Source of the DNA: a virus
Strand: one strand, 5' to 3'
Virus record (IMG/VR): IMGVR_UViG_3300016471_001035
Coordinates: 75,595-139,594 of that record
DNA length: 64,000 nt
In this document: positions 2 to 51,723 of the stretch, in pieces
Position numbering within the stretch: position 1 is the first letter of the stretch
How the letters are laid out: each line of letters opens with the position of its first letter
The notes under the pieces: generated by a model
What the model was told of the DNA's origin: nothing
The model's database searches: none
Seen by the model: only the letters and a program-made list of their open reading frames with translations
Program-made: the position numbers and the translations under genes

Positions 2-1663
2 GAGCAAAAACTTCAATATCTTGAATTATTAAGGATGATTGCTTATGCGGGGTTAACTACATTTGAAGGCGCTCTTGGTTCATTATCAGTAATTACGGGT
101 TTATGTGCTATTAGAGCGAGGTCTCGTAATCAAAGAATCCCTACTTTTAATAAGGAAGTTCACAGCGATGAACAAAATGCTGGTGCGTATGTTGGTGAAC
201 CACGCAAAGGGTTTCAGGAGAATATAGTTTCATTTGACGCTAATAGTCTATATCCAAATGTTATGATAACATTAAACCTCTCTCCTGAAACAAAGGTAGG
301 GGTAATCACAGATAAAAATGATAAAGAAATAACTATACAGCATGTAAACGGACAAGAATTTAAATTATCACATCAAAGCTTTGTTGATTTTGTAAAGAAA
401 GAAAAGATAGCTATTTCAAAAGCAAAAGTTTTATTTACTCAGAAAGAAAAAGGAATTATACCGGTAACTGTAGATCATTTTTACAAGAAGAGAGTAGAGA
501 TTAAAAGACAGCTTAAACTTTTACAAAAGAAAATTATTTCTATAGAGAAAAACACAGATGAGTATAAGCAACTCAAATTGCAGATAGATAATTTAAATAT
601 TACTCAACATACTATAAAAATCTTAATTAATACCATATACGGTTATTTCGGTAATAAGCACAGTCCCTTAGGCGATGATCAGCTAGCTGAGAGTATTACT
701 CTTACAGGCCAAGCTGTAATTAAAGAATCTAATAGATTATTAGAAGAGTATGTAAAAAGTAAGACAGGAATGAGTAATGAAGATATCATAAAAGATACGC
801 CTATAATTTACAATGATACTGATAGTTCGTACATTTCTATTAAACATATCGTACAAAAAACAGGATTAAAAATGCTTGATAGTAAGGGTAAAATTACTTC
901 TGAATACTATAAAGAGGTACAGTCAATAGAGGACTATCTTAATAAAAATATTGTTGTCTGGGGTCAAACTGCGCTTGGTTCGCAAGATTGTAGGTTAAAT
1001 TTTAAGAGAGAAGCTATAGCAGATGCAGGGATTTTTCTACAGAAAAAGAGATATGTACTTCACGTATTAGATGAGGAAGGCATACCATGCAATAAGTTTA
1101 AGTATACAGGGGTAGAAGTGGTTAGGACTACTATGCCTGCGCCTATAAAGCCCCACGTTAAAAAGATTATTGAGACAATGTTATTAACAAAAGACCTAGC
1201 AGCTACTAATAAAATTTTTAATGAAACTTATGAAATATTTAAAAACCTTAGCGTAGAAGATATAGCTTTTGTAATGGGCATTAAGGGGTATGAGAAATAT
1301 TCATCGATGTGTGACGGCTTTAAGACAGCAAAACATATGCCTATTCACGTAAAAGCTGCATATTTTTATAATATTTTGCTCGATAGGTTTAATACAGGTA
1401 AAAAGTATGAAAAGATATCATCTGGAGATAAAGTAAGATATTTTTATGCTAAACAGCCCAACAAATTCGGTATATCTACTATCGGCTATAAGTATTCCTT
1501 TCCTAAAGAATTTAATGATGTGTTCGAACCTGATCACGAATTAATGTTTGAGAAAATTATTTTCTCAGTTATTGAGAGATTTTATGATGCAGTTAATTGG
1601 AAGCTTCAATCCCCAGGGACACAGGTTCAAACTGACCTTTTTGATCTACTAAAAGAAAGTTGA
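2..1663 (+). CDS. gp43: Family B DNA polymerase (T4 gp43-like), 5'-truncated by window edge
   Basis: Motifs SFDANSLYP (A), KILINTIYG (B), YNDTDS (C), KKRY. Frame is open from position 2, so ATG 35 is internal. Confidence 0.96.
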   Translation, partial: EQKLQYLELLRMIAYAGLTTFEGALGSLSVITGLCAIRARSRNQRIPTFNKEVHSDEQNAGAYVGEPRKGFQENIVSFDANSLYPNVMITLNLSPETKVGVITDKNDKEITIQHVNGQEFKLSHQSFVDFVKKEKIAISKAKVLFTQKEKGIIPVTVDHFYKKRVEIKRQLKLLQKKIISIEKNTDEYKQLKLQIDNLNITQHTIKILINTIYGYFGNKHSPLGDDQLAESITLTGQAVIKESNRLLEEYVKSKTGMSNEDIIKDTPIIYNDTDSSYISIKHIVQKTGLKMLDSKGKITSEYYKEVQSIEDYLNKNIVVWGQTALGSQDCRLNFKREAIADAGIFLQKKRYVLHVLDEEGIPCNKFKYTGVEVVRTTMPAPIKPHVKKIIETMLLTKDLAATNKIFNETYEIFKNLSVEDIAFVMGIKGYEKYSSMCDGFKTAKHMPIHVKAAYFYNILLDRFNTGKKYEKISSGDKVRYFYAKQPNKFGISTIGYKYSFPKEFNDVFEPDHELMFEKIIFSVIERFYDAVNWKLQSPGTQVQTDLFDLLKES

Positions 1664-1687
1664 TTTTAAATTACTATAACATAATAT
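1660..1687 (+). promoter_or_regulatory. Sigma70-type promoter, start codon at predicted +1
   Basis: TTGATT-N16-TAATAT-N6-ATG(1694); the -35 overlaps the polymerase TGA stop. Confidence 0.65.
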
Positions 1688-1693
1688 ATCTAC

Positions 1694-2050
1694 ATGAGTA
1701 AAGAAAATATTGTCACTTTTATCGATCACATTGGTAGAACTATTATTGCAACACATGTTGACCAAGATAAGTCACATTTAACTGTTAAAAACCCTGCCAT
1801 TATCCATGTTCAACCTACGCAGAACGGTCAGCTAAATGTGCAGACAATTCCTTTATTTTTTAGAGAATTTGTTGGTGAAAAATCTAAAGCTACAGGAACT
1901 ACATGGAAGTTTAATTTACAAAATATTGTTCTAGGTATTGACATTGACAATGATCCTCGTCTGTTAGAACAATATAATAAGCTTTTTACTTTTGTAGCTC
2001 CATCCCCTGCAAAAGAATCAGCTCCTGTAATTAAGTTGTTCGACGAATAA
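1694..2050 (+). CDS. Hypothetical protein between DNA polymerase and UvsX
   Basis: 118-aa ORF with its own promoter; no recognised motif. Confidence 0.8.
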   Translation: MSKENIVTFIDHIGRTIIATHVDQDKSHLTVKNPAIIHVQPTQNGQLNVQTIPLFFREFVGEKSKATGTTWKFNLQNIVLGIDIDNDPRLLEQYNKLFTFVAPSPAKESAPVIKLFDE

Positions 2051-2058
2051 TATTTTAC

Positions 2059-2086
2059 TTGTTTTTTATTTTTCAGTCTTTATACT
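2059..2086 (+). promoter_or_regulatory. Sigma70-type promoter, start codon at predicted +1
   Basis: TTGTTT-N16-TATACT-N6-ATG(2093). Confidence 0.7.
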
Positions 2087-2092
2087 AGTTTT

Positions 2093-3211
2093 ATGAGTAA
2101 AGACCTTAATAAAATATTTGCGTCACTAGATAAGCTTAATAGCGAAGCTTCTTTTTTAAACGAAAATGCACTTAGTAAAGTTGATGAGTGGTTTGATACT
2201 GGATGCTATGCTCTTAACGCTATTCTTGGCGGGAGTTGTCGCAACGGTGGCGTACCTAAGGGAAGAATAACAGGATTCTCTGGACCTAGTCAAACTGGTA
2301 AGACTTTTATTGTAAATAAGATTTTAGCTACTGCTCAAAAAAAAGGTATTACTCCCGTTATATTTGATACTGAAATAGCTATTGATGAAAATAGTACAAA
2401 AGGTGTAGGTTTGGATCCCGAAAATGTAAAATATGTGCCTGTTGACACCATTGATCAGTGTCGTAATCAAGTTAGTGCACTACTCGATAGTATTATAGAA
2501 AATGATGCTAGAGGTAAATTTATACTTAGTATTGACAGTTTAGGCAATCTTGCTTCACAGAAAGAGCTCGATGACGTAGCTAAAGATAAATCTGCAGCGG
2601 ATATGGGTCTTCGTGCAAAGTCTTTAAAGAGTATGTTTCGCACTTTAACCTTTAAGGCTGCAAAGGCTGGCGTTACAATTCTTTTTACCAATCATACGTA
2701 TGATGATCCAGCTGCAATGTTCCCAAGTCTTGTGAAGAATCAAGCCGGTGGCTCAGGCCCTGTATATATGGCAAGTATACTTGTACAGCTTGCCAAGCGC
2801 CACGAGAAGGAGGGCGAAGGTGATTCTATGGATGTAGAGGACAAGAAGCTAGCAGAAGCCAATAAATACAGCGGTACAACACTTCGTGCATTGACTGTAA
2901 AGAATCGCTTCTTGCCTCCGTTTTTAGAGACTGAAATGTATCTTTCTTTTAAAACCGGTCTTAACAAGTACAGTGGATTGCTTGGTATGGCTGCAGTGAG
3001 AGGTATCGTTGAACAAAACGGTGCCACATACACAGTGGGGATTACAAGCGGTAAGTACAAGAAGGGTGATAAACTAGGGTATGCAAAGACTTTTGCAAAA
3101 GATCCTGCTTTCTACGAGGAATTTATTATTCCTGAGTTAGATAAGAGATTAATAGAGGAATACAAATATAATGCCAACGAAGAAGGTAAAGAAGAAGAAC
3201 CTATCGAGTAG
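2093..3211 (+). CDS. uvsX: RecA-like recombinase UvsX
   Basis: DTGCYALNAILGG, Walker A GPSQTGKT, FDTE, IDSLGNL, TNHTY, VKNRF. Confidence 0.95.
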   Translation: MSKDLNKIFASLDKLNSEASFLNENALSKVDEWFDTGCYALNAILGGSCRNGGVPKGRITGFSGPSQTGKTFIVNKILATAQKKGITPVIFDTEIAIDENSTKGVGLDPENVKYVPVDTIDQCRNQVSALLDSIIENDARGKFILSIDSLGNLASQKELDDVAKDKSAADMGLRAKSLKSMFRTLTFKAAKAGVTILFTNHTYDDPAAMFPSLVKNQAGGSGPVYMASILVQLAKRHEKEGEGDSMDVEDKKLAEANKYSGTTLRALTVKNRFLPPFLETEMYLSFKTGLNKYSGLLGMAAVRGIVEQNGATYTVGITSGKYKKGDKLGYAKTFAKDPAFYEEFIIPELDKRLIEEYKYNANEEGKEEEPIE

Positions 3212-3941
3212 GGCTGTAGTCCCTGTTAGTGGTGGCATGGACAGCTCAGTACTGCTTCATTTAGCAGCTGAACGGTATGATAAGATAGTTGCTGTAAGCT
3301 TTGCATATGGTCAAAAGCACGGGGTAGAAATAATTTATGCTACACGACAGCTAGGCCAAGTACTTAAAAAAGTGGGCGAAAAAAATATAGTACATAAAAT
3401 TATTAATTTACCGTTTTTTAAGGATGTTTGTCAGGTTTCTTCACTTCTTAACAATAAGATTGCAGTAGCTAAAGCCAAGGACGTAATGGGAGATCCGCAA
3501 ACAGTAAACTATGTACCTTACAGAAATACGATGCTGCTAAGTATTGCATTAGCAATAGCTGAAAACTGCGGTGCTTCTACTGTTTTTCATGGTGCTGCGC
3601 AGGCTGATAGTGTTGCGGGATTTTGGGATGGGAGTGAGGAATTTTTAGAACAAATTAACAAACTTTCATCACTCAATAGACGGAACAAGATAACCGTTCA
3701 AGCTCCTTTAATCAAAAAATCTAAATCAGATATTATTAAATTAGGTATAAAGTTGGGAGTAGATTTTAGTCAAACATGGACTTGTTATGAGGGCGGAGAA
3801 CAGGCCTGCGGTGAATGTACTGCGTGTTCTTTGAGAATAAAAGGCTTTATTGACGCTGGTTATATAGACCCGGTAAATTATAAAACATTAATACCTTGGG
3901 AAAAATATAAGTGTAAGTTAATCTATAACTCTGCAAAATAA
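3171..3941 (+). CDS. queC: 7-cyano-7-deazaguanine synthase QueC family PP-loop ATPase
   Basis: SGGMDS PP-loop, YGQKH, YVPYRN, C-terminal Zn site TWTCY...CGECTACSLR. Confidence 0.92.
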   Translation: MPTKKVKKKNLSSRAVVPVSGGMDSSVLLHLAAERYDKIVAVSFAYGQKHGVEIIYATRQLGQVLKKVGEKNIVHKIINLPFFKDVCQVSSLLNNKIAVAKAKDVMGDPQTVNYVPYRNTMLLSIALAIAENCGASTVFHGAAQADSVAGFWDGSEEFLEQINKLSSLNRRNKITVQAPLIKKSKSDIIKLGIKLGVDFSQTWTCYEGGEQACGECTACSLRIKGFIDAGYIDPVNYKTLIPWEKYKCKLIYNSAK

Positions 3942-5257: not shown

Positions 5258-6160
5258 TTAAGCAGTACTGTACTTGTCAAATTCGTCGAAGCTTCTTCCA
5301 CCTTTATAACCTAGCTCTCTTGCGATTGAAGTAGGCTCGTCTTCTTCAGGATATTCTTCTACCGTTTCCACTTCACCGGTACCTTCGCCTTCTTTTTTCT
5401 CAGATGAAGGTGAAAAACTATTTTTAAATTTTAATGAATCAATAAAGTCCTGTACCATTTCGCTGTCTTTAGCCATCTTTTCATCATAGGCGCGAATAAT
5501 AGCCTCTTCTACTTCTTTTTTAAGCTCAGGTGAATTATAAATATCGCTACCACTAGATACAGTTATTTCATCAGGCAATTCATTAAAGATTGGCATCCAT
5601 TCTTTAATAAATCTAACATCGTTTTTTATAAAGGTATTTGTTGTAGAAGCTGGTGTTGCAGGTGATGTACCAGGTGCACCGGGAGCAACTACTTTCTTAC
5701 CCTCTACCCCAGAGGTAACAGCTTGCTTGACTTGTGCTGGGCTAGCTGCTGCACCACCTTCTACATCTACTCTTAAAACGTTTAACAAATTGTCAACTAT
5801 TCTAGCAGTGTATCTAGCTTCAGTACCGCCGAGTTTAAGTTCGTTTTTAATTAAATTTTCTAAATCTGTTCTAAATTTCATCTTAGATCCCGGATAATAA
5901 AGCTTATATTCTTTACCATCTATAGTATGAATTGCGGGTTTAAAGAGCTTTGTCTGTATTGCTTGAAGTAAACGATTTGCAATTTCTGCTTTTGTTTTAC
6001 CTTCCTTTGCAGCTGTTTTACCAATACCATACCCCTTGCCAGGCGCTTTTTCAATATCACCGGTATATCCTAGCTCGTCAGCATATATAGGTGCTTCTTT
6101 TAAAACCCTAGGTTTTTTAGTTAAATAAGCTTCGAAAATAAGCTTTGTATCTTTGTTCAT
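5258..6160 (-). CDS. Hypothetical late protein, candidate internal head protein
   Basis: 300 aa, TAAATA upstream, N-terminal LIFEA/VLKEA motifs, acidic C-terminus. Confidence 0.7.
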   Translation of the reverse strand: MNKDTKLIFEAYLTKKPRVLKEAPIYADELGYTGDIEKAPGKGYGIGKTAAKEGKTKAEIANRLLQAIQTKLFKPAIHTIDGKEYKLYYPGSKMKFRTDLENLIKNELKLGGTEARYTARIVDNLLNVLRVDVEGGAAASPAQVKQAVTSGVEGKKVVAPGAPGTSPATPASTTNTFIKNDVRFIKEWMPIFNELPDEITVSSGSDIYNSPELKKEVEEAIIRAYDEKMAKDSEMVQDFIDSLKFKNSFSPSSEKKEGEGTGEVETVEEYPEEDEPTSIARELGYKGGRSFDEFDKYSTA

Positions 6161-6161
6161 C

Positions 6162-6200
6162 TTGAATTATTTATTCTTTATATTATAATAAATCAGGAGG
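6162..6200 (+). promoter_or_regulatory. Sigma70-type promoter followed by Shine-Dalgarno AGGAGG
   Basis: TTGAAT(6162)-N16-TATAAT(6184-6189); AGGAGG at 6195-6200, 8 nt before ATT at 6209. Confidence 0.75.
6168..6173 (-). promoter_or_regulatory. T4-type late promoter core
   Basis: TAAATA-N7-ATG(6160), nested in the spacer of the opposite-strand sigma70 promoter. Confidence 0.6.
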
Positions 6201-6208
6201 TTATAGCT

Positions 6209-6892
6209 ATTTGCGGTATATTTGGTTCTAAAGACTTTACAACTTATGTAAAGCTTTATAAGAGCAACAAGAAACGTGGTACGTTTTCTTACGGTGGTCT
6301 ACTGATCGGCTCACATATTCACGCTGTTCTCAAGACACCAGGCACTGCCAACCTATCCAATAAGCTAGTTATAGAGTACGGTAAAAAGAGGAGAAACATT
6401 ACAGATTTTGATGTTTTTTTAGGACACACTCAAGCCCCTACATCTGAAAAAAGAACATTTTCACCAAATACATCTCATCCTTTTCAACATAAAGAATGGT
6501 TAATTGCACATAACGGGGTTTTAACAAACGATAAGGAATTAAAAAAGCTTATTAAAGATAAAAAATCTTATAACGTTGTAGATTCATCTGTTATTGCACC
6601 GCTTATAGCTATGTTTGTTAAAGAGCTAGATGATGAGGTTGCAGGTGTTTGCAAAGCACTATCGCTACTTAAAGGTACGTTTGGCCTTTGGATATATAAT
6701 CAAAAAACTGGTAATATTTTTCTCGCACGATCCGGCAGTACAGTATTCGCAGATTTTCTATCAAACGACTTTTCTTCTTTAAAGGAAAGCGGGTTTGTCC
6801 CTCTTGACGAAGGTACACTATACCTATTAACTAAGGAAGGGTTAACCTCCGTAGGCGTATTTAAGACTAACTCTCCGTTTTTTACACAATGA
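6209..6892 (+). CDS. Class II (Ntn) glutamine amidotransferase, ATT start, 227 aa
   Basis: Read by hand: ATT TGC GGT ATA TTT GGT = (M)CGIFG, then RG, LGHTQAPT, SHPF, AHNGVLTN, VDSSVI, LKGTFGL. No stop before joining ORF 6611-6892; no in-frame ATG/GTG/TTG back to the TAA at 6122. Confidence 0.9.
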   Translation: MCGIFGSKDFTTYVKLYKSNKKRGTFSYGGLLIGSHIHAVLKTPGTANLSNKLVIEYGKKRRNITDFDVFLGHTQAPTSEKRTFSPNTSHPFQHKEWLIAHNGVLTNDKELKKLIKDKKSYNVVDSSVIAPLIAMFVKELDDEVAGVCKALSLLKGTFGLWIYNQKTGNIFLARSGSTVFADFLSNDFSSLKESGFVPLDEGTLYLLTKEGLTSVGVFKTNSPFFTQ

Positions 6893-7581
6893 AAACAGCA
6901 TTTTATTTTTGTACAAGAAATTCTAAAGCGCAAGATACTTTTGCATTTAAATCTCTTCAAAGAATTAAACTAGCTACTCTATGGGAGTTTACTATAATTT
7001 ATAAGGAAAATAATAATGACGGATTAAGCTTAAATTATAATAGTGTTTTAGAAAAGCATGGTAAAGATTATGATAACATAGTTTTTATACACGATGATGT
7101 TTATATTGACGATCTTGGAGTGGTAAATAAGCTAGAAAAAGCTCATAATGATTTTGATATTGTAGGTCTTGCTGGGGGGTTAAATCCTGAAATTAAAGCA
7201 CCCGCCCTTTGGCATTTAATGTGTGGGGGGTTTAACAGCGGTAATTTGAGAGGAGCAGTAGCCCATAAATTTAATAATGATCAAATTTTTATGACCAATT
7301 TTGGCCCCACACCCGCTAGAGTTGCTATTTTAGATGGACTATTCCTAAGCGTTAAAACCGAATGTTTTTTAAAAAAGGAATTTAAATTTAATGAAAATTA
7401 TAACTTCCATCATTATGATATTGCCACCTGTATTGATGCTAATAAAAACAAATTAAAGTTAGGGGTCGTCCCTATATGGGTAGTACATAATTCACCCGGT
7501 CTTCTTAATATCAACGATGCTACATTTAGCGCTAGTCAATCTATATTTTTAAGAGAGTATAGCAGTATTGATTCTGTATAA
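6889..7581 (+). CDS. GT-A fold glycosyltransferase-like protein
   Basis: LSLNYN, VFIHDDV (DxD-like), IVGLAG, LDGLFL, FHHYD; ATGA overlap with the amidotransferase. Confidence 0.75.
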   Translation: MKTAFYFCTRNSKAQDTFAFKSLQRIKLATLWEFTIIYKENNNDGLSLNYNSVLEKHGKDYDNIVFIHDDVYIDDLGVVNKLEKAHNDFDIVGLAGGLNPEIKAPALWHLMCGGFNSGNLRGAVAHKFNNDQIFMTNFGPTPARVAILDGLFLSVKTECFLKKEFKFNENYNFHHYDIATCIDANKNKLKLGVVPIWVVHNSPGLLNINDATFSASQSIFLREYSSIDSV

Positions 7582-7595
7582 TTTTAATATATCAT
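7568..7595 (+). promoter_or_regulatory. Sigma70-type promoter, start codon at predicted +1
   Basis: TTGATT-N16-TATCAT-N6-ATG(7602). Confidence 0.7.
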
Positions 7596-7601
7596 AAGAG
7601 A

Positions 7602-8930
7602 ATGGTTAAATTAGATCTAGATTTTTTTGAGCTTATTATTGCTTATAAATCATTAACTGATGAAACCTATTTAGCTTCTGTTGTCGACCATATAAAGCCT
7701 ATTTTCTTTAAAAATAAAGATATTAAAGTTATTTTTACAATAATAAGAGATTTTTATGAAAAAAGAAATGCATGTCCTACCTTAACAGAAATAAAATCGT
7801 ATTTAACTAACGATGAGCTTAAAAATTCATTTAAGAATGTTGTAACACAGTTTAATAATTTAGATAAAAATTTTAACACAGATGAATTATCTGCTAATAC
7901 AGAAACTTTTATAAAAGAAAAATCCGTATACCATACAATGATGGATGTAGTAGATGATATCAACAAAAATAGTGTCGACACTTCTAAAATTTTAGCTAAA
8001 TTTGAAAAAGCTTGTAGTATATCTTTAACCACTGAAATAGGGTTAGATTTGTATGCTAATTTAGATAGAGTAATTGAAGACCTGCATTCTTCAGAAAAAT
8101 ATATTCCTTCTAAATGGAAATGGCTTGATGATAAAATAGGAGGTGGGTTTCTAGAATCTGGTAGAGCACTCTATTTGTTTGCAGGCGAAACAAATATTGG
8201 TAAAAGTATATTTTTAGGAAATGTAGCTATTAACATAGCTGAGCAAGGAAAGACTGTATTGCTTGTTTCTTTAGAAATGCCAGAAATAATTTATGCTAAA
8301 AGACTCGTTTCAAGTGTATCTAAAATACCATTAAGCCAATTAAAAATAGAGTCTGATTCTTTAAAAAATCAAATTAGCGAGTATTGTATTGAAAATCCAA
8401 ACGCAAAAATTATTATAAAGGAGTTTCCTCCCGCAACAATTACGCCCAACCATTTAAAGGCTTTTATTAAAAAATTAATACAAAAAGGTATTAAGATAGA
8501 TGCCATAGTTTTGGATTACGTAAATCTATTACATTCGTCTATGGGTGATTCAAGCTATGAGCGTGTTAAGATTTGTACTGAACAATTAAGAGCTTTATCA
8601 TATGGGTTTAATTGCCCTGTTATATCCGCTACTCAGTTAAACCGTGAGGGGTATGAAATAACTGACCCAGGTTTAAAGACAATATCAGAAAGTATAGGGT
8701 TGGCTATGACAGGTGACGTTATTATGAGTATTTGGCAAGAAGATACAGATAAAGAACTTGGCATTATTAAAATGGGATTAATGAAAAACAGGTTTGGACC
8801 TAATTACGGTCATTGTGCAATGAGGATAGATTATTCAACACTTACTATTACAGAAGACGAGCATATAAATGACACAGAAGCAAGCACTTCTTCAATTAGT
8901 ACGTTGACAAAATTAGCTATCGACAATTGA
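7602..8930 (+). CDS. gp41: Replicative DnaB-like helicase (T4 gp41-like)
   Basis: Walker A GETNIGKS, SLEM, VLDYVNL, ATQLNR, KNRFG. Confidence 0.95.
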   Translation: MVKLDLDFFELIIAYKSLTDETYLASVVDHIKPIFFKNKDIKVIFTIIRDFYEKRNACPTLTEIKSYLTNDELKNSFKNVVTQFNNLDKNFNTDELSANTETFIKEKSVYHTMMDVVDDINKNSVDTSKILAKFEKACSISLTTEIGLDLYANLDRVIEDLHSSEKYIPSKWKWLDDKIGGGFLESGRALYLFAGETNIGKSIFLGNVAINIAEQGKTVLLVSLEMPEIIYAKRLVSSVSKIPLSQLKIESDSLKNQISEYCIENPNAKIIIKEFPPATITPNHLKAFIKKLIQKGIKIDAIVLDYVNLLHSSMGDSSYERVKICTEQLRALSYGFNCPVISATQLNREGYEITDPGLKTISESIGLAMTGDVIMSIWQEDTDKELGIIKMGLMKNRFGPNYGHCAMRIDYSTLTITEDEHINDTEASTSSISTLTKLAIDN

Positions 8931-8955: not shown

Positions 8956-9252
8956 TTGTTGAATGTGAAAGGTTACGATCCTTCTGAGCAATTAACAGAT
9001 TATGAACAAACTCATTTGTTTTTATCTTTCTGTTCGTTTGTAACACTCACTAATACAAAAAAATTAAATCTTGCTAATGTTTTTATTACCCTTCTTAAGA
9101 ATAAAGAATTTAGAGAGATTTTTAAAATTTATTGTGATTTAAAAAATGATTTTTCAGCTGTAAAATTTTTCTTGCAATTTGATTCAAGCTTGTATAAAAG
9201 TAAATATATAATGAAATTTTTAAACTCAAATAAAAAGGCGCTTTTCCTATGA
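8956..9252 (+). CDS. Hypothetical protein
   Basis: 98-aa ORF, start uncertain (TTG 8956 or GTG 8965); its stop overlaps the bS21 start. Confidence 0.65.
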   Translation: MLNVKGYDPSEQLTDYEQTHLFLSFCSFVTLTNTKKLNLANVFITLLKNKEFREIFKIYCDLKNDFSAVKFFLQFDSSLYKSKYIMKFLNSNKKALFL

Positions 9253-9461
9253 GCAATATTGTTAATGCTTCTGTAACTTTAGATAAGAAGAAATGTACAG
9301 ATAAAGTTTATTTTGATAAAGCCTACAAAAGGTTTGCAAGAGAATTTTTAAGGTCGGGTGTGTTAGAGGATTTAAGATTTAAAAGGTGTTATTATAAACC
9401 AAGCGTGTTGCGTAAGTTAAAAAAGCAAGTTGCAAGACAGAAGTGGAAGTTTTACAATTGA
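9249..9461 (+). CDS. rpsU: Phage-encoded 30S ribosomal protein bS21
   Basis: 70 aa, basic; FDKAYKRFAREFLRSGVLEDLRFKRCYYKPSVLRKLKK matches the bS21 pattern ALRRFKR..G...E.R.R.FYEKPS..RK. Confidence 0.85.
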   Translation: MSNIVNASVTLDKKKCTDKVYFDKAYKRFAREFLRSGVLEDLRFKRCYYKPSVLRKLKKQVARQKWKFYN

Positions 9462-10099
9462 TTACCGAGTTTGAAAAGCACATTTATAATTCTTATTTAA
9501 AAGTCACTAGATCAAATAGTGAACTACCTTACAAACTTAGAAAAAATTTTGAAAAAGTTGACGATAAGCTTTATGTAGCCTTAAAAAAGCTTTCTTCTTT
9601 TTTTAAGAGATACCCCCATATAAAAATAGAGGATTTTTTTCGCGCGCCTTATTCTCTTTACCCTGACGAAAAATATTTTCCAATAGAATATTTTTATTCA
9701 CTTAAAGCTATAAAGTCCTATACTTTGTTTAATAAGCAACAGACAAATCTTGATCCGGATAGCGATGAACAGCTTAATAGCATTAAAAATTCATTAATTT
9801 TTATAAAAAGTTTTTGTAGAGATAATAATTTAAATGTAGAAAATTATATTTTTCACAAAACAAAAAATGAATATTCATTTATTTTGCACTTAAAAGAACA
9901 TAATGTCAACGTATATACTTTATTAGGATTTAATAACTTTGAGAAAATTCTTAGAGGCTGTAACCCCGATATTACAAAATTTATTATTGGTGAGGATATA
10001 TACAACAACATCCAGGTATTTAGAACACGTCTTTATAATTCAAAAAAAGCAAGTAAAGTTGTCGAATATGGACTTAAAAAAATATTAGAAAAAGCTTGA
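9443..10099 (+). CDS. Hypothetical protein, possibly gp59-like helicase loader
   Basis: Basic, aromatic-rich, about 215 aa, directly upstream of gp32 as gp59 is in T4; function from synteny only. Confidence 0.45.
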   Translation: MEVLQLITEFEKHIYNSYLKVTRSNSELPYKLRKNFEKVDDKLYVALKKLSSFFKRYPHIKIEDFFRAPYSLYPDEKYFPIEYFYSLKAIKSYTLFNKQQTNLDPDSDEQLNSIKNSLIFIKSFCRDNNLNVENYIFHKTKNEYSFILHLKEHNVNVYTLLGFNNFEKILRGCNPDITKFIIGEDIYNNIQVFRTRLYNSKKASKVVEYGLKKILEKA

Positions 10100-10123
10100 T
10101 TAAGCAAATAAAGTTATTATTAT
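10096..10123 (+). promoter_or_regulatory. Sigma70-type promoter, start codon at predicted +1
   Basis: TTGATT-N16-TATTAT-N6-ATG(10130). Confidence 0.7.
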
Positions 10124-10129
10124 TATTCT

Positions 10130-10984
10130 ATGAGTACATTTACCACATCGATGTTTGAAAGTATTAAGGGCGCTTTGACGAAAAATAACGAATCTACTGC
10201 TTCGAAGGTTAAAGACTATCTTCGCTGTGAAGCCGGCAACACATATACAGTTAGACTTATTCCTAATGTAAAAGACCCATCTAAGACGTTTTTTCACTAT
10301 TATTCATACGGCTGGAATAGTTTTGCTACTGGTGAGCTTATTACTGCAGTAAGCCCTACTACATGGAATCAGCGTGATCCTATTGCTGAAGAAAGGTATC
10401 GTATTTTGAGAACAGGTACAGAGAAAGAGAAGGAAAAGGCTTTGGCTATTAAGCGTAGAGAAAATTGGTTAGTTAATGTTTATATTATTAACGATCCCGT
10501 AAACTCTGATAATAATGGGAAGGTAAAGCTCTTACGTTTTGGTCGCCAGCTACATAAAATTATTATGGATGCTATTGAAGGTGAAGAAGCCGCAGAGCTT
10601 GGTCCTCGTATATTTGACCTATCTCCTAAAGGCTGTAACCTTAGAATTAAAGTTGAGAAGCAGGGTGACTACCCCACATACGTTTCATCTAAGTTTTCTA
10701 CTCCTAAGGAAATAGAGGGGTTGGACGAAGATGATTATAAGAAAGTTTATAACAGCTCATTTGATCTTGAGTCATATGTTAGTGTTAAGAGCTACGAAGA
10801 GCTTAAAAATCTACTTGATGCGCATTACTATGGCACCAAGGATGTTGAAGAGGACGGCGCTGTTACTGCTGAAGTTAAAGCACCTAAGCCTTCAGTTAAT
10901 GTAACTATTAATTCTAAGAAGGCTGAGACGAAAGAGACTACAGCCGACGATCAGCAAATAGACGAATTACTTAAAGATCTATAA
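10130..10984 (+). CDS. gp32: Single-stranded DNA-binding protein (T4 gp32-like)
   Basis: VRLIP, NVYIINDP..NNGKVKLLRFG, IFDL..GCNLRIK, YPTY.SSKF, acidic tail IDELLKDL. Confidence 0.92.
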   Translation: MSTFTTSMFESIKGALTKNNESTASKVKDYLRCEAGNTYTVRLIPNVKDPSKTFFHYYSYGWNSFATGELITAVSPTTWNQRDPIAEERYRILRTGTEKEKEKALAIKRRENWLVNVYIINDPVNSDNNGKVKLLRFGRQLHKIIMDAIEGEEAAELGPRIFDLSPKGCNLRIKVEKQGDYPTYVSSKFSTPKEIEGLDEDDYKKVYNSSFDLESYVSVKSYEELKNLLDAHYYGTKDVEEDGAVTAEVKAPKPSVNVTINSKKAETKETTADDQQIDELLKDL

Positions 10985-11382
10985 TGGAAGATACTTTTAG
11001 AGAGTTAACTCCAGAAGAAATTAAACTGGCTACTATCCAGTTTATGGGCCAGCACCTAACTGGAGAAATGAAAGAACTCAATAAAAATATTATCGGCGAA
11101 AGCGCTACACTTAGATCTTTATCCATAGACCCCTTAAAAGTTATTCAAACAATTCCAGGGGATAAACGTCCATATGCTACAACTGTTAATGCTGGGATAA
11201 ATATTGCTCCTAACGCTATTCATCATCCTATTCCAGTACAGCAATCTCAACAACCCACAGTAGATCCTAATCAACTTGAATTTGATTTTGGTAAGTCAAA
11301 TTTAGCAAATTCTATTTTAGATCGGTTAGATTCGTTGAGCTCAAAATTAGATAAAGTTATAGCCTTACTTAAAAAAGATTGA
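10984..11382 (+). CDS. Hypothetical protein
   Basis: 132 aa, TAATG-coupled to gp32; contains DPNQLEFDF. Confidence 0.75.
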   Translation: MEDTFRELTPEEIKLATIQFMGQHLTGEMKELNKNIIGESATLRSLSIDPLKVIQTIPGDKRPYATTVNAGINIAPNAIHHPIPVQQSQQPTVDPNQLEFDFGKSNLANSILDRLDSLSSKLDKVIALLKKD

Positions 11383-41430: not shown

Positions 41431-44400
41431 ATGGCTAATTTTGTAAATTATACTTATGTATATTTCTACATAACTAACTATACCGGTACTAATACACTTA
41501 CTTCCTACACTCTACCAAATACGCCAGTAACATTTTATCCGGATTTTACCACTTCAGCTATTTTAACTGCTACAGATAACATATCTAATAAGATTATAAG
41601 ATGGGATTTTGGTGATGGTACTTTTTCTAATGAGTTAACAGCTGTTCATCATTATGAATGGCCGGGAGAATATAGCGTAAGGCTTACTGTTTATGATAAA
41701 CAGGGCAGTAGCTTCGATAGCTCTTACAGACCAGTAGTAAAAATATATGATTATGTTTATGATCAGCTGCAATTTAGAGATTATATAAAATTTATATACG
41801 ATGTACCTGCTAGCAAAATACAAGACCCTCTCATTATTGAAAGGCAGAATAGCTGGCAATCATATCCCGCGCTTAGTGCTAATGGATATACTTTAAATCT
41901 TTATGCCTCAGGCGCAAACGGTCAATATCAGAACATTGATAACTTTTATGACGACAAATGGTCACATCTAAGAGCTTTAAGTAGGTTTTACATAAAAAAT
42001 AGAATAGGAGCAAATTTTGAATTTAAATCTGTAAGTCAAGTAACAACCACCAATGAAGAAATTTATGTAAAATTAGCAAATAAAAAATTAATTTTATGTA
42101 AAAAAGATGATGAGGGTGCTGTTTTAGCAGGCACAAAAGGAACTGCAGAAATTTATTACGTAGATGATGTAGCTAAAAATTTTACTACAAGAGAACCTCC
42201 TATTTTCGTATTTGCAACATTTGATAGTTCAAAATTTGAGGACTGGTACAGCATATTACATAATTCCTACCCTACAATAAATTATCCACCTTATGGGTTT
42301 CAAAATTTAAAGCCTGCAGTACTTCCCATTATTAAGGTTAGACACAATGAAGCAACTAGACTATCCATTACTACAACAGGAATTGATGGCGAAGGATATC
42401 TTTCCGCAACCAACTTTAATATGCCAGAGATTAGCTGGCAAAACACAGAAATACCTTTCGTTATTAGAATGAAAGATAGAGATAACTATACAACAAAAAC
42501 TTATCCTCCACTGTCCTCATCTACAATTAATTCATCTTTATCAACCTTAACTGCATTTGATGTAAAGTTTGGTTTAATTGAACAGACTAATACAGGATTT
42601 AAAGAAGTAAGTACAATAAAATTTTACGAAGATTTTAATTCAGAAATTCCACAAAGTATTGGAGCTTTTTATAAAGGCTATTTTGTATCACCCGAAACAA
42701 CTTATAACTGTAAGCTTACAGCTCAAATGACTGTAGTTGACCCTCTTAATTTTCCTAAAGACTCGTTAATAGGTTGGATAGCAGCCCCACAATACAATAA
42801 ACTGTTAAGATTTTTTAGACAACAAATTTATAGTAATTGCCCTGGATATCTTACTGTTACAATTTCTGCATCAAGACAATATTTTAATTCATTTGAAAAT
42901 AGAAATGTATATGCAATTCAGGTCGCGCCCTCAGGAAATGGTCCAGGAAAAGATTATGAAACTTGGTTTGCTGATGGAACAAGTGATAGGGTATTCAAAT
43001 TTAATGCAAGCGGAGATATATTACTAGACATACCTTTAAATAATGCCCCTACTTTATCTGGAGGTCAAATAATAAATGTAAATTACCTTTCCCCTGTACT
43101 AAGTAGTGCGGCTCCAGGTAGTATTACTTTGGATAGAAATAACGATATATGGGTAGCTTTATTTGATTCTGTATCCTGTATAAAGATCGATGCTACAGAA
43201 GGATATGTTAAGGCTGTAGCTTATCCTCCGTATAATAATATTGTATATAGCTTAAGTTCCAGTTACAATATACCTACATTAAGTGGTTTTGCCGGTGAAA
43301 ACCTGCTGCTACCTTCTTCAGTAGATACTGACAGAGAAGATAATTTATGGGTCTCATATACTCACCCCGCATCAAACTTCTTAGTAAAGTATGATTCTCA
43401 AGGAAATTATTTATTTACTGTGGGGATGTCTGCATTACATTCACCAGTAGAAATAGTAATAGATAGAAATCGTTTTGTATGGCTATCAACTTATAATCTT
43501 ACTACTAGCGGTGCTTCACTTACTTCTAGAAACGACTTTTTATATAAATTTACCTCAACTGGTGCATTAGTTAGCGGCTACCCTCTTTCTGGCTTTAGAT
43601 TTATAGGTAATTTAACAGTTGACGGTAATCAAAATGCGTGGGTAGTACATAATAAAGATACAGTTACTAGAGTAAGCGGTGAAGATGGTACAACAACTGA
43701 TTATATTGCAGGCTCAGGAAATTTTACAAACTACATAGGTAGCATTGGCGGTATTGCTGTTGATACTAGTTCTTATCTATGGGTAATTAATAATTTAAAT
43801 CAAAGATTGTATCTTATAGATACGCTACTACCTCCAGCATCATCTTTAGAAGATTATGAATATGTTGAAATAGAGTACCCCGCAACATCCCCTGAAAACC
43901 AGCCATCAACTTTTGAAGACAAACAGCTTCAAGCTTACGGTGACTGGCTAGGTAGTAGATGGATTAACAAGCATATGTTAGCAGAAACCACAACACGTGT
44001 AATTACTGGCGAATCAACTAGCTTTAACATATATCCTCTATCAGGCGTTTACAATATTCAAAAAGTAAACGAGAATTTTAATACTGAAAAATTTTATAAA
44101 GATTTAATATTTACAGAAAATTTAGAAGATAAAAAAATATTTTTTGAAGACTTTTTAGGCACTATAGTAGGCGATGGCAAATCTATGCCCTACGAACTAG
44201 GTAAAACAATTTACGAAAAAATTGCAAATTATGTAAATAATACTTCTGATATAGATTCGTGTAATTTAGACCAGCTACTTTCATTTTGCGATGAGCTATC
44301 AGTTCAGTTCGAACAGTATAATTATCCATTCCCACCACAGCTTTTAAGACTAGTAAACCTACTTTCCATTAAACATAAAAAGCTGTGGGGCGATTTAAAC

Positions 44401-44862
44401 AAATATGATATATTATTTTTAAGAGATACAACAAAGCTTACAGAGTATAACACATTAACAAGTACTATTTCTTGCGGTTATCCTATTGTAGCGAAAGAAA
44501 AATTTTCAGACCTCTATACTGTAGTAAACAATAATATAATAAGCAATTACACTTACGGGTATGTGTTGCCTTTATCCGATTATTCTGTTGAATGGGGTTG
44601 GGGATTGGTAGCACCTAGAGGTCTTTCAGGTGATAGAATCTCAGATTATTATAAATTTTATGAGTATAAGCCTGTAGAGGATACAAGGTATTTTAATAAT
44701 ATTATCGATTGGGACAACTCAATGAATACACTTACATTTAATAATAGCTCTTTTAATAATTGGAAAAAAGATAATGGAATGATGCAAAATATGCTAAGTT
44801 ACGAGCTAACTAAAGGATTAAGACTGTTTTTAAGCGGTAGTAACATTGTATATAACAATTAA
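41431..44862 (+). CDS. Large baseplate-associated protein with PKD domain and beta-propeller repeats
   Basis: WDFGDG...HHYEWPGEYSVRLTV (PKD); repeated (I/V)D...(L/I)WV propeller units; follows gp6. Confidence 0.7.
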   Translation: MANFVNYTYVYFYITNYTGTNTLTSYTLPNTPVTFYPDFTTSAILTATDNISNKIIRWDFGDGTFSNELTAVHHYEWPGEYSVRLTVYDKQGSSFDSSYRPVVKIYDYVYDQLQFRDYIKFIYDVPASKIQDPLIIERQNSWQSYPALSANGYTLNLYASGANGQYQNIDNFYDDKWSHLRALSRFYIKNRIGANFEFKSVSQVTTTNEEIYVKLANKKLILCKKDDEGAVLAGTKGTAEIYYVDDVAKNFTTREPPIFVFATFDSSKFEDWYSILHNSYPTINYPPYGFQNLKPAVLPIIKVRHNEATRLSITTTGIDGEGYLSATNFNMPEISWQNTEIPFVIRMKDRDNYTTKTYPPLSSSTINSSLSTLTAFDVKFGLIEQTNTGFKEVSTIKFYEDFNSEIPQSIGAFYKGYFVSPETTYNCKLTAQMTVVDPLNFPKDSLIGWIAAPQYNKLLRFFRQQIYSNCPGYLTVTISASRQYFNSFENRNVYAIQVAPSGNGPGKDYETWFADGTSDRVFKFNASGDILLDIPLNNAPTLSGGQIINVNYLSPVLSSAAPGSITLDRNNDIWVALFDSVSCIKIDATEGYVKAVAYPPYNNIVYSLSSSYNIPTLSGFAGENLLLPSSVDTDREDNLWVSYTHPASNFLVKYDSQGNYLFTVGMSALHSPVEIVIDRNRFVWLSTYNLTTSGASLTSRNDFLYKFTSTGALVSGYPLSGFRFIGNLTVDGNQNAWVVHNKDTVTRVSGEDGTTTDYIAGSGNFTNYIGSIGGIAVDTSSYLWVINNLNQRLYLIDTLLPPASSLEDYEYVEIEYPATSPENQPSTFEDKQLQAYGDWLGSRWINKHMLAETTTRVITGESTSFNIYPLSGVYNIQKVNENFNTEKFYKDLIFTENLEDKKIFFEDFLGTIVGDGKSMPYELGKTIYEKIANYVNNTSDIDSCNLDQLLSFCDELSVQFEQYNYPFPPQLLRLVNLLSIKHKKLWGDLNKYDILFLRDTTKLTEYNTLTSTISCGYPIVAKEKFSDLYTVVNNNIISNYTYGYVLPLSDYSVEWGWGLVAPRGLSGDRISDYYKFYEYKPVEDTRYFNNIIDWDNSMNTLTFNNSSFNNWKKDNGMMQNMLSYELTKGLRLFLSGSNIVYNN

Positions 44863-44865
44863 ATA
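44860..44865 (+). promoter_or_regulatory. T4-type late promoter core
   Basis: TAAATA-N5-ATG(44871). Confidence 0.65.
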
Positions 44866-44870
44866 CTTAA

Positions 44871-47800
44871 ATGGTATCTAATAATAGATTTATTGATGAG
44901 AAGCTATCAGTATCCATTACTTCTCTTGTTGCACCATCAAACCCTGTAGATAGCAATAAGCCTTTATCTTTTCAAGAATGGCTAAAATATAATAATTCTT
45001 TATTCACTAATGCAGACGACTTTTTATCTAGATATCAATCTTATCTTAATAATTGGTATGAGATAAAAAATATTGCTAAGCCTGAGCAGGTTGCTATAAC
45101 TAAATCACTTTACACCTTATTAATTAATGAAATTGTACTTTCCTTTACTTCTACAGATGAAAGACGGTTTTTAAAAAATATTGATTTTAATAATAATAGA
45201 GATCTAGCTGTTGCTGTACCTTTTTTTGCTAAAAAAATTAAAGATATATGCTTATATTACAGTACATTAAGAGATGACGTTAAATCTTCTGTTGTACAGT
45301 ACAATTTAAAAGGTTCTATTTACGGTACAAAAAACTTAATTTATAATCAAATATCAAAGTCATTAGAAACTGAAGATTTGACAGACTTAATTAGAACTTT
45401 AAACTACTCTTTATCAGATATTAGAAATAATATGGTGGTAGATATAGAAGAGCTATATGATACTAATCAAAACTATTTTGATGTTAGCCCTTACCTTCCT
45501 GCATCATCTTATGATGTCACAGAAGGTGAAAGAGAAAAATATTTTTCTGTTAATCAGTACGATATTGACCCAAATTTGTTTTTAAACTTTGATACTTCAA
45601 TAGTAGATGCAATTACGTCTTACCCGTTCTTTTTGCTAGAGTTTGGTACTAATAATTTTTCTGCTAACATACCAGGTCTTTCTTCTGAATCGCTAAACTA
45701 TCTCAAAGATAGAGATTATATTAATACTGTTAACACAGAAGACAGAGACAATTTAAATCTTAATTTAAATTTAAACCAAATTACAAAGTTTATAGGTACT
45801 GATTTTTACTATATATCTACCAATTCTACTGGGGTAGAGTATCTTTCCGGTAGACTGTTTGTTGCAGATAATAATTTTGCAAATTATCTTAATAAAAGAT
45901 ACCCATCTGTAGCAGCTATCCCGTCTTCTGAATTTATTAAATCAGGTAAAGATATAGGGCTTTTTTTTAAGCCTGATAAATTAGGGTTATCTAACTTCTA
46001 CAGCTTTGGACTAGCTACGACAATTAAAAACTCAGTATTAAGTGCAGATACTGTATATGTGTTTCCAGATCCTTCTATTTACGGAGACATTTCTAGTTTA
46101 ACTGAAGAGGAATTTAACTCCCCCATTGTTTATACAGACTTATCTTATTTTAATAAAATAGATTTTTCAAATCAATTTAAATTTGGTGATACTATAAGCG
46201 GGCCTTATTTTCAAACTTTAAGAGCATATCAAGCACGTGAACAATCACTTGGCATAGGACTACAGGGGCTATCAAGATATACAGATTCACAAGATTTTTT
46301 TGAAGGGTATAAGAAAAATGTTTGGTCTAACAAAGATGTTTTTCCTATTATACCACAAAATGTTTTTCCTATAGATAATAGAATAGAAAAACTATATTCA
46401 ATTAATAAAACTATTACACAGCAAAAATCTGATATTTACGGTAACGATTATGTATTATATAAAGACGTTGAACCTTTAAAAAGACTATCTAATACCCCAA
46501 CTAATCAAGGCGGATTAAAAATTTATTACTGCCTTTACATTGATGGGCATGTCTTTTTTGATGCTATTTCCGGCTACAACTTTGATTATACTGAATATTT
46601 ACCTGCAAAAAATTATACAGGCATTCTATTAAAAACTACAACAAACATCCCACCAGGCACAGGGTATTATGTGCAGGGTCCTAATTATCTCACACCATCA
46701 CCTCTTTCTGCTTCAAAATACAACAACGGTATTCCGGAATTTACTTTACCCTCATTAACAGCCGTTATAGTTTCATACAGATTTCAACCCGATACATTCT
46801 GCCCTGATGAGATAAAAGTTAAGTTTGATTGTAGTGTTTACGACGGCGAAACTTTTGTATCACCTGCAAGCGGTCTTTTACCCGATACTTCATCCGACGA
46901 GCCAACTTTTGATCCCGAAATAGCAAATGTTTATTATGGTATTTTAGTCGACGGTGGTGTTAATCCTAACGGTCCAGATTATAGAGCTAATTTTGTTTAC
47001 CCTGGAGAATTTACCTTTACCCCACCGGTGTCTGCAGTAGAAGATGTTAACGGTAGTATTTTTGCTTATAATAGTGCTTCCCCTTGCGGTGATGATAATG
47101 TGTTTTCAGTATCCTATATTGAAAAGAGTAATTTCATGGATTATAAAATTCCTTTTAGAAATACACAGGTTATAGAAGGGCTTTCAGGTATTGATTCTAA
47201 GAGAACGTTATATGAAACTAATTTTATAGATTATGGTCAACTTTATTATAGAAATTCTAATTCTTCTATAGTAGGTCCAGCATCAGCTGCATTAAGCGGA
47301 ATGTATTTAAAGTATAGTGTTAATATTGTAAATGAACTTAATAATAATCTAATTAACTTTGATATTGTATACGACACTATTATATTTGAAACAGAAAATT
47401 ATCTTATAGCGGACAAGCTTGTATTCGATTATGAGCAAAATAAAAACATAGATATATCAAAAAATGATTGTTATTTTCAGCGTAATGCCAATAAAGAGTT
47501 AGAAAAAATTTCTACTATATGGTATAACGAAGAAATAGATACGTTTTTCTTCTGTAAAACTGTATTATATAATCAGCTTAGCGCAACTAATTATAAAATA
47601 GTTTATCCTGAAATTTATGCAATTAATGCTTCGAATTTAACTTTTAATAAAATTTATCCTCAAGTTTCTAATTCTGAATTAACTATAGATTACTTAAAAA
47701 TGTTTTCATTATCTGGAAATAATATTGAAGTTAATATTATCAAAATAGATAAACCTTTATTTAATTATAATAATGAAACAGGTCTATACACTATTACCTG

Positions 47801-48014
47801 GCTAGGTAAAGATATTGCAAATAGCTTCTACATATTTAAAACATTCTTTAAATATATTAATGGCGTTATAACTAATATTAGCAATTCAATGTTTAAACTA
47901 CTTCCAAATGTTAATACTATTAATTTTACAGGCGCTCTTTCTTCTTACTATGCAACACAAAACATTGCTGGTGAAGTAGGTGAAGTAACGAACGGAGAAT
48001 TTATCTTTAACTAA
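44871..48014 (+). CDS. Large putative virion structural protein
   Basis: 1047 aa, late motif upstream, baseplate cluster; no recognised domain. Confidence 0.65.
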
Positions 48015-50412: not shown

Positions 50413-50420
50413 ATTTTTAT

Positions 50421-50448
50421 TTGATTTAAATACATTGTGTATTAAAAT
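50421..50448 (+). promoter_or_regulatory. Sigma70-type promoter of the glycosyltransferase operon, start codon at predicted +1
   Basis: TTGATT-N16-TAAAAT-N6-GTG(50455). Confidence 0.7.
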
Positions 50449-50454
50449 ATTAAA

Positions 50455-51723
50455 GTGAAAAATAACAAAGAATTAATTTTTATTTCAATAGCTTCATATA
50501 GAGATCCGCAGTTAGTACCTACTTTAAGAGATTGTGTTGCCAATGCTAAATATCCTGAAAATTTAAGGTTTAATATTTGTTGGCAAAAAGACGAGAAGGA
50601 ATCATTAGAAGAGTTTACAAATGATTCGAGAGTTAAATACATTGAAGTTCCTTATAACGAGAGCAAAGGGACATGCTGGGCAAGAAGCAGAATTCAAGAT
50701 AATTATGATGGTGAAAAATATTATTTACAGCTAGACAGTCATCATCGCTTTGTAAAAGATTGGGATGAAAAATGTATTGGAATGGTCAAGCAACTTCAAA
50801 AGAAAGGACATAAAAAGCCTCTGCTAACTGGTTATATTTCTAGTTTCAATCCAGATAATGATCCCGCTGAACGTATACAAATACCATGGAAAATGAATTT
50901 CGATAGATTTATACCAGAGGGAGCAGTTTTCTTTTTACCCGCATCAATCGACGATTATAAAGAACGAACTGAACCGCTACCAGCAAGATTTGTTTCAGCT
51001 CATTTTATTTTTACACTTGGTAAATGGGTAAAGGAAGTTCCTTACGATCCTAATTATTATTTTCATGGTGAAGAAATTAACCTTGCTGTGAGATCATTTA
51101 CTTGGGGATATGACTTATTTCACCCTCATATGGTAATCGCATGGCATGAATATACTAGACGAGGAAGAACGAAACACTGGGATGATGTTAAGGAATGGGG
51201 CGAATTTAACAGACTTTCGCACCTACGTAATCGTAAATTGTTTGGTATGGATGGTGAGATCGATGATATTAAGTGGGGAAAGTATGGATTTGGTAAGAAG
51301 AGAACATTACAGGATTATGAAAAATATTCCGGTCTTTGTTTTAAAAAGCGTGCAGTTCAAAGATGGACGCTAGAAAATAAACTAGCACCAAATCCTAATG
51401 ACAATCTTAGTGCGGAAGAATATGAAAAGTCTTTCTTAAAGATATTTAAGCATTGTATTGATGTCGGATATGACAAAGTGCCTGAAAAAGACTATGACTT
51501 TTGGTGTGTAGCATTTAAAGATAAAGAAGGTAAAGATGTATATAGAAAAGATGCTGATAGAGCTGAAATAGATAGAATGTTTAATGATCCGGACAAATAT
51601 TGTAAGATTTGGCGTGAGTTTAATGCAGAAGAAATGCCTCATAGCTGGATTGTATGGCCTCACAGTGTATCTAAAGGGTGGTCAGATCCTATAACTGGTG
51701 TAATAGGTAATAAAGTCAGCTAA
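50455..51723 (+). CDS. GT60-like (Skp1/polypeptide GlcNAc-transferase family) glycosyltransferase
   Basis: IFISIASYRDPQL, KGTCWAR, YYLQLDSHHRF (DSH metal motif), EVPYDP, FHGEE, FTWGYD, WHEY. Confidence 0.8.
   Translation: MKNNKELIFISIASYRDPQLVPTLRDCVANAKYPENLRFNICWQKDEKESLEEFTNDSRVKYIEVPYNESKGTCWARSRIQDNYDGEKYYLQLDSHHRFVKDWDEKCIGMVKQLQKKGHKKPLLTGYISSFNPDNDPAERIQIPWKMNFDRFIPEGAVFFLPASIDDYKERTEPLPARFVSAHFIFTLGKWVKEVPYDPNYYFHGEEINLAVRSFTWGYDLFHPHMVIAWHEYTRRGRTKHWDDVKEWGEFNRLSHLRNRKLFGMDGEIDDIKWGKYGFGKKRTLQDYEKYSGLCFKKRAVQRWTLENKLAPNPNDNLSAEEYEKSFLKIFKHCIDVGYDKVPEKDYDFWCVAFKDKEGKDVYRKDADRAEIDRMFNDPDKYCKIWREFNAEEMPHSWIVWPHSVSKGWSDPITGVIGNKVS

Follow-up and report, generated by a model that had tools for sequence, protein, structure and literature searches.

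Promoter boxes abutting start codons predict widespread leaderless transcripts in a distant T4-like phage

The sequence considered here, referred to as the window, is a 64,000-nt stretch (bases 75595-139594) of a 139,594-bp IMG/VR virus contig (IMGVR_UViG_3300016471_001035; 33.5% GC, estimated completeness 66%). Its feature of interest is a set of promoter-like boxes which end five or six nucleotides before start codons. The contig carries a T4 core gene set (uvsX, uvsY, uvsW, gp41, gp61, gp32, gp46/47, gp55, sheath, tube, portal, prohead protease, and a gp23-like capsid gene). Replication and recombination genes in the window, identified by PHROG and Pfam matches, include uvsX, a DnaB/gp41-like helicase, a gp32-type single-stranded DNA-binding protein (SSB), primase, and dUTPase; uvsY, uvsW, a gp55-like late sigma factor (phrog_234, E 2.7e-27), and gp47/gp46 lie upstream of it, in the syntenic order uvsY-uvsW-gp55-gp47-gp46. 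A megablast search of a phage collection gave no match, and the helicase has its best match among deposited phage records in cyanophages, at 28% identity; by its gene content and this low identity, the window belongs to a distant T4-like phage.

A first-pass annotation had described nine genes preceded by TTGnnn-N16-TAnnnT-N6, followed by ATG or GTG, and a tenth, at 12844, with N5. All ten were found again with exactly these spacings:

1660-1696, plus strand: TTGATT-N16-TAATAT-N6-ATG, beginning a 118-aa open reading frame (ORF; 1694-2050) with no family match; geometry present in 15 of 17 orthologues with an aligned residue-1 codon.
2059-2095, plus strand: TTGTTT-N16-TATACT-N6-ATG, uvsX (2093-3211); kept in 23 of 27 aligned orthologues, with a conservation profile.
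7568-7604, plus strand: TTGATT-N16-TATCAT-N6-ATG, DnaB/gp41-like helicase (7602-8930); motif and orthologue alignment.
10096-10132, plus strand: TTGATT-N16-TATTAT-N6-ATG, gp32-type SSB (10130-10984); full geometry in 44 of 52 orthologues, codon periodicity from +1.
11379-11415, plus strand: TTGATA-N16-TATTAT-N6-GTG, sliding clamp (11413-12144); orthologue alignment, PCNA-like fold.
12833-12846, plus strand: TATAAT-N5-GTG, without a TTG -35 element, RmlD/epimerase-like gene (12844-13680); Pfam Rossmann match from residue 3.
14166-14202, plus strand: TTGTAA-N16-TATAAT-N6-GTG, primase (14200-15237); GTG start common to most relatives.
16029-16065, plus strand: TTGCAA-N16-TATAAT-N6-ATG, 149-aa ORF (16063-16512); kept in 25 of 26 orthologues.
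36984-37020, plus strand: TTGAAT-N16-TATAAT-N6-ATG, dUTPase (37018-37497); in a 54-bp divergent intergenic region with a late box on the opposite strand.
50421-50457, plus strand: TTGATT-N16-TAAAAT-N6-GTG, GT60-type glycosyltransferase (50455-51723); motif match and Pfam.

As the annotation had also said, Shine-Dalgarno (SD) sequences are absent: none of the ten sites has an SD core (GGAG, GAGG, or AGGA) at -20 to -4. PHROG and Pfam matches uphold the gene labels uvsX, helicase, SSB, primase, dUTPase, and GT60 (PF11397). The clamp label has no sequence-family match behind it, but its AlphaFold model (predicted local distance difference test 90) resembles PCNA clamps (template modeling score 0.72-0.75); the model has a confident beta-strand from residue 2, which makes the GTG start credible. 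In the 12844 gene, the position of the Rossmann match leaves no room for a later start. The mechanical ORF call for the 16063 gene begins one codon upstream, at a TTG. More generally, the abutted starts are the first in-frame starts of their ORFs, and Pfam and fold models begin at residues 2-4.

A second box, TAAATA, precedes 17 further starts in the window, at N5-6 (one, at N7, is looser):

6158-6173, minus strand: TAAATA-N7-ATG, the looser spacing, gene 5258-6160.
13964-13977, plus strand: TAAATA-N5-ATG, gene 13975-14163.
15629-15642, minus strand: TAAATA-N5-ATG, gene 15224-15631; one of an opposed pair in a 30-bp divergent intergenic region.
15651-15664, plus strand: TAAATA-N5-GTG, gene 15662-16048; the opposed partner of the preceding box.
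20103-20116, minus strand: TAAATA-N5-GTG, gene 19785-20105; directly behind a GC-rich hairpin and T-run (terminator-like).
21083-21097, minus strand: TAAATA-N6-ATG, gene 20177-21085; in a 20-bp divergent intergenic region shared with the large terminase gene.
22810-22823, plus strand: TAAATA-N5-ATG, tail-tube-family gene 22821-23435.
23465-23479, plus strand: TAAATA-N6-ATG, tail sheath gene 23477-25774.
25779-25792, plus strand: TAAATA-N5-ATG, tail tube gene 25790-26338.
26352-26365, plus strand: TAAATA-N5-GTG, gene 26363-27271.
28098-28111, plus strand: TAAATA-N5-ATG, baseplate-hub-like gene 28109-28861.
28876-28890, plus strand: TAAATA-N6-ATG, tape-measure-like gene 28888-30813.
36961-36974, minus strand: TAAATA-N5-GTG, gene 36499-36963.
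39019-39033, minus strand: TAAATA-N6-ATG, gene 38419-39021.
44860-44873, plus strand: TAAATA-N5-ATG, gene 44871-48014.
57002-57015, plus strand: TAAATA-N5-GTG, gene 57013-57864.
57862-57876, plus strand: TAAATA-N6-ATG, gene 57874-61461.

The core found before the tail tube, sheath, hub, and tape-measure genes is that of a TATAAATA-like late promoter; conservation is weaker in the TA that precedes it, as it is elsewhere among T4-like phages (PMC1524935). Sigma70-like boxes stand before replication and nucleotide-metabolism genes (uvsX, helicase, SSB, clamp, primase, dUTPase), and this division, with TAAATA at tail genes, is the one expected of temporal promoter classes.

The distances themselves are not those of shuffled sequence, a comparison set beforehand as a check. 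The window has 11 matches to TTGNNN-N16-TANNNT-N6-RTG; 100 dinucleotide shuffles gave 2.33 +/- 1.57 matches, and never more than 8. In nine of the 11, the RTG is the earliest possible start of a long ORF, a coincidence expected about 0.05 times by chance (estimated from 2,770 RTG triplets and 63 genes in the window). Over the whole contig, the gap between the early motif and RTG has a spike of 29 at 6 nt, against about 1-14 elsewhere. For TAAATA there are 38 cases at a gap of 5 and 19 at a gap of 6, other gaps giving from low single figures to about 10; in the window, TAAATA-N5-RTG is found 15 times, against 4.9 expected. In the 50 kb of T4 examined as a control, TATAAATA-to-ATG gaps cluster at 24-28 nt with no N5/N6 spike, and the same crude measure finds an SD core at about 49% of ORF starts, so that the contrast originally drawn with the leadered, SD-led mRNAs of T4 holds.

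The arrangement extends over the contig. By a conservative regular-expression classification, 67 of its 185 ORFs directly abut a promoter box (25 early-type, 42 late-type). When an ORF is counted as first in its unit if it has an upstream gap of at least 12 nt or is divergent, 63 of 99 such ORFs have an early, late, or -10-only box at leaderless distance. Of the 67 abutted genes, 54 have ATG and 13 have GTG as start codon; TTG, which begins 7 of the other ORF calls, is absent. An SD core precedes just one of the 67, against a background of 7.3%; for all ORF starts the figure is 11%. In the far-left early region there is a near-consensus TTGACT-N16-TATAAT-N6-ATG for each small gene. Divergent gene pairs lie 12-63 bp apart, leaving no room for leaders, and several have two opposed boxes.

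Two details of these regions can be added. The 30-bp region at 15632-15661 of the window and the 12-bp regions at G000:C1:21871-21882 and 60198-60209 contain opposed late boxes with a common A/T-rich stretch. In immediate-early cassettes upstream of the window (G000:C1:2100-8800), the 6 nt before the ATG are often G-rich (AGGAGT, AGGTGT, AGGAGG, GGGGGT), and many of the genes begin ATGATG; the G-rich 6-mer may be a short-spaced SD for the second ATG on read-through transcripts, or a discriminator contact.

An IMG/VR scan with the helicase retrieved 80 related loci (47-94% helicase identity); JGI samples 3300016472 and 3300023179 are among the sources of contigs from this clade. Before the orthologous uvsX, helicase, SSB, clamp, primase, and 16063 genes, the related loci retain the TTG at -34 to -32, the -10 element at -12 to -7, and the gap of 6 nt, while the promoter spacers are poorly conserved. 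These predicted promoters thus have a conserved sigma70 form (TTGAYT/TTGACT, 16-bp spacer, TAnnnT), and the N6 geometry, which the annotation had proposed to look for in related genomes, recurs across the 80 contigs. Over unique ORF starts, the early motif peaks at gap 6 in both close (101 of 627) and distant (76 of 663) relatives. Variation at third codon positions begins right after +1: from codon 2 onward there are synonymous changes, while the N-terminal residues are conserved. The primase GTG is kept in most relatives (L010-L078), down to 46% protein identity, and would lie at the predicted 5' end of its transcript.

One further gene with the early promoter geometry does have an SD sequence:

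6162-6214, plus strand: TTGAAT-N16-TATAAT (6162-6189), N6, GGAGG (6196-6200), 8 nt, ATT start (6209), then the catalytic Cys codon; Ntn-type amidotransferase (6209-6892).

The mechanical ORF list gives only 6611-6892 for this gene, whose predicted +1 is the first G of the SD. SD and ATT are common to about 20 relatives with 68-87% identical amidotransferases, and to one (L037) at 60%; in nearly all of those at 50-62% identity, this promoter is followed after about 6 nt by ATG-TGC. This switch between N6-ATG and GGAGG-N8-ATT supports the predicted +1. One predicted promoter geometry serves, depending on the relative, either a putatively leaderless ATG or a minimal leader beginning at the SD, and the GGAGG-N8-ATT arrangement suggests that host ribosomes probably read SD sequences.

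The -10 hexamer of sigma70 promoters occupies positions -12 to -7, so that N6 puts +1 on the first base of the start codon. The T4 late box occupies -13 to -6 (PMC1524935), and TAAATA-N5 would likewise put +1 on the start codon. The N6 and N5 offsets therefore match the start distance of each promoter class, which would not be predicted of a translation signal in the RNA. The restriction of abutted genes to ATG and GTG is what would be expected if polymerase must initiate with a purine. A -10 (Pribnow) box lying 6-8 nt before genes is the feature by which leaderless transcription is generally recognised in bacterial genomes (PMC6028130; PMC12340547). The best reading, and in our view a probable one, is that first cistrons are leaderless, with transcription starting on the A or G of the start codon. 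The same proposal in the annotation, made for the replication genes, is backed by the offsets, the purine-only starts, the absence of SD sequences, the conservation, and the short divergent regions. About a third of the genes, first in most transcription units, should then come from mRNAs without a leader or ribosome-binding site. Exactly where transcription starts, and how ribosomes load, are both inferred.

If so, each transcription unit would begin at the start codon of its first gene. At early and replication genes, host sigma70 RNA polymerase would recognise TTGAYT-N16-TAnnnT and place +1 at the seventh nucleotide past the -10 box, which is the A or G of ATG or GTG; polymerase with the phage gp55-like late sigma factor would recognise TAAATA and place +1 at the sixth nucleotide past it, likewise on the start codon. 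The resulting messages, with AUG or GUG at the 5' end, would be translated without leader or SD, and downstream genes of the unit mostly by stop-start coupling (ATGA, TAATG), occasionally with an ordinary SD. Since leaderless initiation needs the AUG at a 5' end, very dense promoters would be expected: there are at least 67 in 140 kb.

The arrangement is not universal, and the fully leaderless programme suggested by the annotation does not stand. Besides the SD-led ATT gene at 6209, about 85 of the 185 ORFs are internal cistrons. Stop-start overlaps of 4 nt (19) and 1 nt (13) are the commonest junctions among them; 65 of the 85 have no promoter box, and 14 have SD cores, several of them well placed (e.g., AAGGAG 8 nt before ATG).

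Several observations weigh against leaderless first cistrons. Among first-in-unit genes, roughly one in three has no clean box at N5-7; the major capsid and portal genes are of this kind. In their first 36 nt, abutted genes show no reduction in folding relative to internal windows (p = 0.16). When the conserved SSB 5' end was sought in metagenomes, none of 29 contigs ended at the ATG and all extended past it; an exact-protein look-up led to ordinary DNA contigs. A generic terminator scan, which says little in DNA this AT-rich, found none between replication genes (8 matches, against 10.6 expected), so read-through transcripts with internal starts must also exist. Finally, E. coli is a poor translator of leaderless messages and barely reads those that begin with GUG (PMC4633059).

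The two exceptional structural genes lie outside the window, at G000:C1:38807-40407 (capsid) and 43750-45570 (portal). Upstream of the major capsid gene (phrog_138, E 1e-80) is a stretch of 77 nt that contains a small hairpin, a TATAAAAG-like box about 30 nt upstream, and a GGAG at 13 nt from the ATG, but no canonical N5/6 late box. At the portal gene, TAAATA stands 11 nt before the ATG, rather than at N5/6.

The alternative that survives best takes the promoters as real, with most protein made from longer transcripts, read through or initiated upstream. Starts would then be internal, either coupled or SD-independent by way of A/U-rich (S1-type) sequences, and messages with a 5'-terminal AUG would be a minor fraction. 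The run of replication genes without intervening terminators suits this, as does the weakness of E. coli-type ribosomes on leaderless messages (PMC4633059), and translation of the 85 internal cistrons without SD implies that an SD-independent internal route exists. What it leaves unexplained is why the N6 or N5 distance should be exact across relatives diverged to 47-94% identity, why abutted genes avoid TTG, and why a terminator-like hairpin should be followed at once by a box and start at 20103-20116. We regard it as unlikely.

As a second alternative, the A/T-rich hexamers might be enhancers of translation initiation acting in the RNA, like the upstream signals of SD-free Bacteroidota, and not promoters. 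The genome is indeed nearly SD-free (11% of ORF starts, against the 7.3% background), and it encodes bS21 (PF01165, E 2e-10; window 9249-9461, ATGA-coupled within the helicase-to-SSB operon), a protein tied to anti-SD masking in Bacteroidota (PMC9723584). However, an enhancer gives no role to a TTG fixed 16 nt upstream, 65 of the 85 internal cistrons do without the hexamer, and the hexamer varies by temporal gene class, fitting the sigma70 or T4 late consensus with the offset specific to each; this explanation is very unlikely. An artefact of composition or annotation, with promoter-like strings arising in AT-rich DNA and true starts elsewhere, is scarcely credible: a generic sigma70 scan is noisy in such DNA (114 matches, against 86 expected), but the fixed-distance test exceeds dinucleotide shuffles, and the starts are first in frame, with conserved N-termini and Pfam and fold models from residues 2-4.

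A link between bS21 and leaderless starts was considered and is not supported. In relatives with and without bS21 near the helicase, abutted starts make up 34.0% and 33.9%, respectively, and SD use is equally low; this comparison covers about 10 kb either side of the helicase, and a bS21 gene elsewhere would be missed. Homologues of bS21 were found in the phage clade only. The suggestion in the annotation that such a phage could suppress canonical initiation while its own translation continues is unsupported. In an extended form, a clade relying on 5'-end-dependent and coupled initiation could disable SD-led host translation, for example through bS21 masking or altering the anti-SD, while its own messages continued to be read; the rare SD and ATT gene would then be an exception controlled by deliberate shut-off or by timing. 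We consider this unlikely.

Among known systems, T4 late promoters (TATAAATA at -13 to -6; gp55, gp33, gp45) have several parts in common with the window phage: the same core box, a gp55-like sigma factor, a clamp, and boxes before structural genes. T4 late messages, however, have leaders of about 20-25 nt with an SD, whereas in the window the box is 5-6 nt from the start codon and no T4-style leader is predicted. HTVC008M, a cultured T4-like pelagiphage (L096/L098), is intermediate: about 10 late genes have TATAAATA exactly 5 nt before ATG, while capsid, portal, sheath, and most early genes keep leaders with an AAGGAG-type SD, and the early sigma70 fusion is rare. It also encodes a bS21, which matches that of the window phage only locally (32% over 31 residues).

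Mostly leaderless transcripts have been mapped experimentally in the Thermus phages phiYS40 and Lalka27a (bioRxiv 10.64898/2026.04.20.719267; reviewed in PMC3594737). The likeness is phage-wide, with an initiator A or G as the transcript 5' end and promoters abutting ORFs, although here it is predicted from sequence. The Thermus phages are unrelated, have other promoter motifs, and infect a Deinococcus-Thermus host in which leaderless genes are the norm, whereas the window phage is T4-like and AT-rich, with gp55-type late boxes. A shift in host IF2/IF3 levels is reported for phiYS40. An identical signature is seen in the 'group C' leaderless genes of bacteria (Actinobacteria, Deinococcus-Thermus), with a Pribnow box by the ORF, no SD on first genes, and RTG starts (PMC6028130; PMC12340547; PMC4633059). 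For leaderless translation in mycobacteria, an ATG or GTG at the very 5' end is both required and enough (PMC4633059). These, however, are cellular genomes with 25-50% leaderless operons and SD-led internal genes, whereas internal genes of the phage are mostly SD-free and coupled, and the phage has a second, phage-specific promoter class with the same fusion. The cI mRNA made from PRM in phage lambda, the classic leaderless phage message with a 5'-terminal AUG (PMC10491246), concerns a single regulatory gene and not a whole genome.

In the library searched, no paper was found that describes a leaderless layout in T4-like phages. The layout proposed here is phage-wide, in a T4-like lineage, and uses both sigma70-type and gp55-type promoters; mapped examples of such a strategy have so far come only from the unrelated Thermus phages.

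Attempts to place the host gave little. The window has no tRNA genes, bS21 matched nothing in a genome scan, and the ESM Atlas returned viral clusters only. A genome scan with the helicase profile retrieved four contigs (L100-L103) from GTDB metagenome-assembled genomes with inconsistent taxonomy (an archaeon, Bacteriovoracaceae, Proteobacteria from Lake Lanier, and Melainabacteria); these phage-clade contigs are probably mis-binned and no guide to the host. The -10 element of Bacteroidota is TAnnTTTG, while that of the phage is TATAAT-like. A Bacteroidota host with RNA-level signals was rejected on this ground, along with the TTGACT -35 element and the use of a perfect GGAGG with the ATT start. 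Outside these questions, a QueC homologue (PF06508, E 7e-56; window 3171-3941) lies directly 3' of uvsX; taken together with the other queuosine-pathway genes of the contig, it suggests that DNA is modified by a 7-deazaguanine pathway.

Textbook accounts of phage gene expression are modelled on T4, whose messages have SD-led leaders on which translational repressors act. If the leaderless reading is right, a large and abundant aquatic branch of T4-like phages would depend on efficient leaderless translation in a probably common freshwater host. It would also explain the very high promoter density and the tiny intergenic regions, and could help to refine gene calling and promoter prediction in such phages. 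Orthologues which switch between a leaderless ATG and an SD-led ATT would be a natural test set for how ribosomes choose 5'-terminal start codons.

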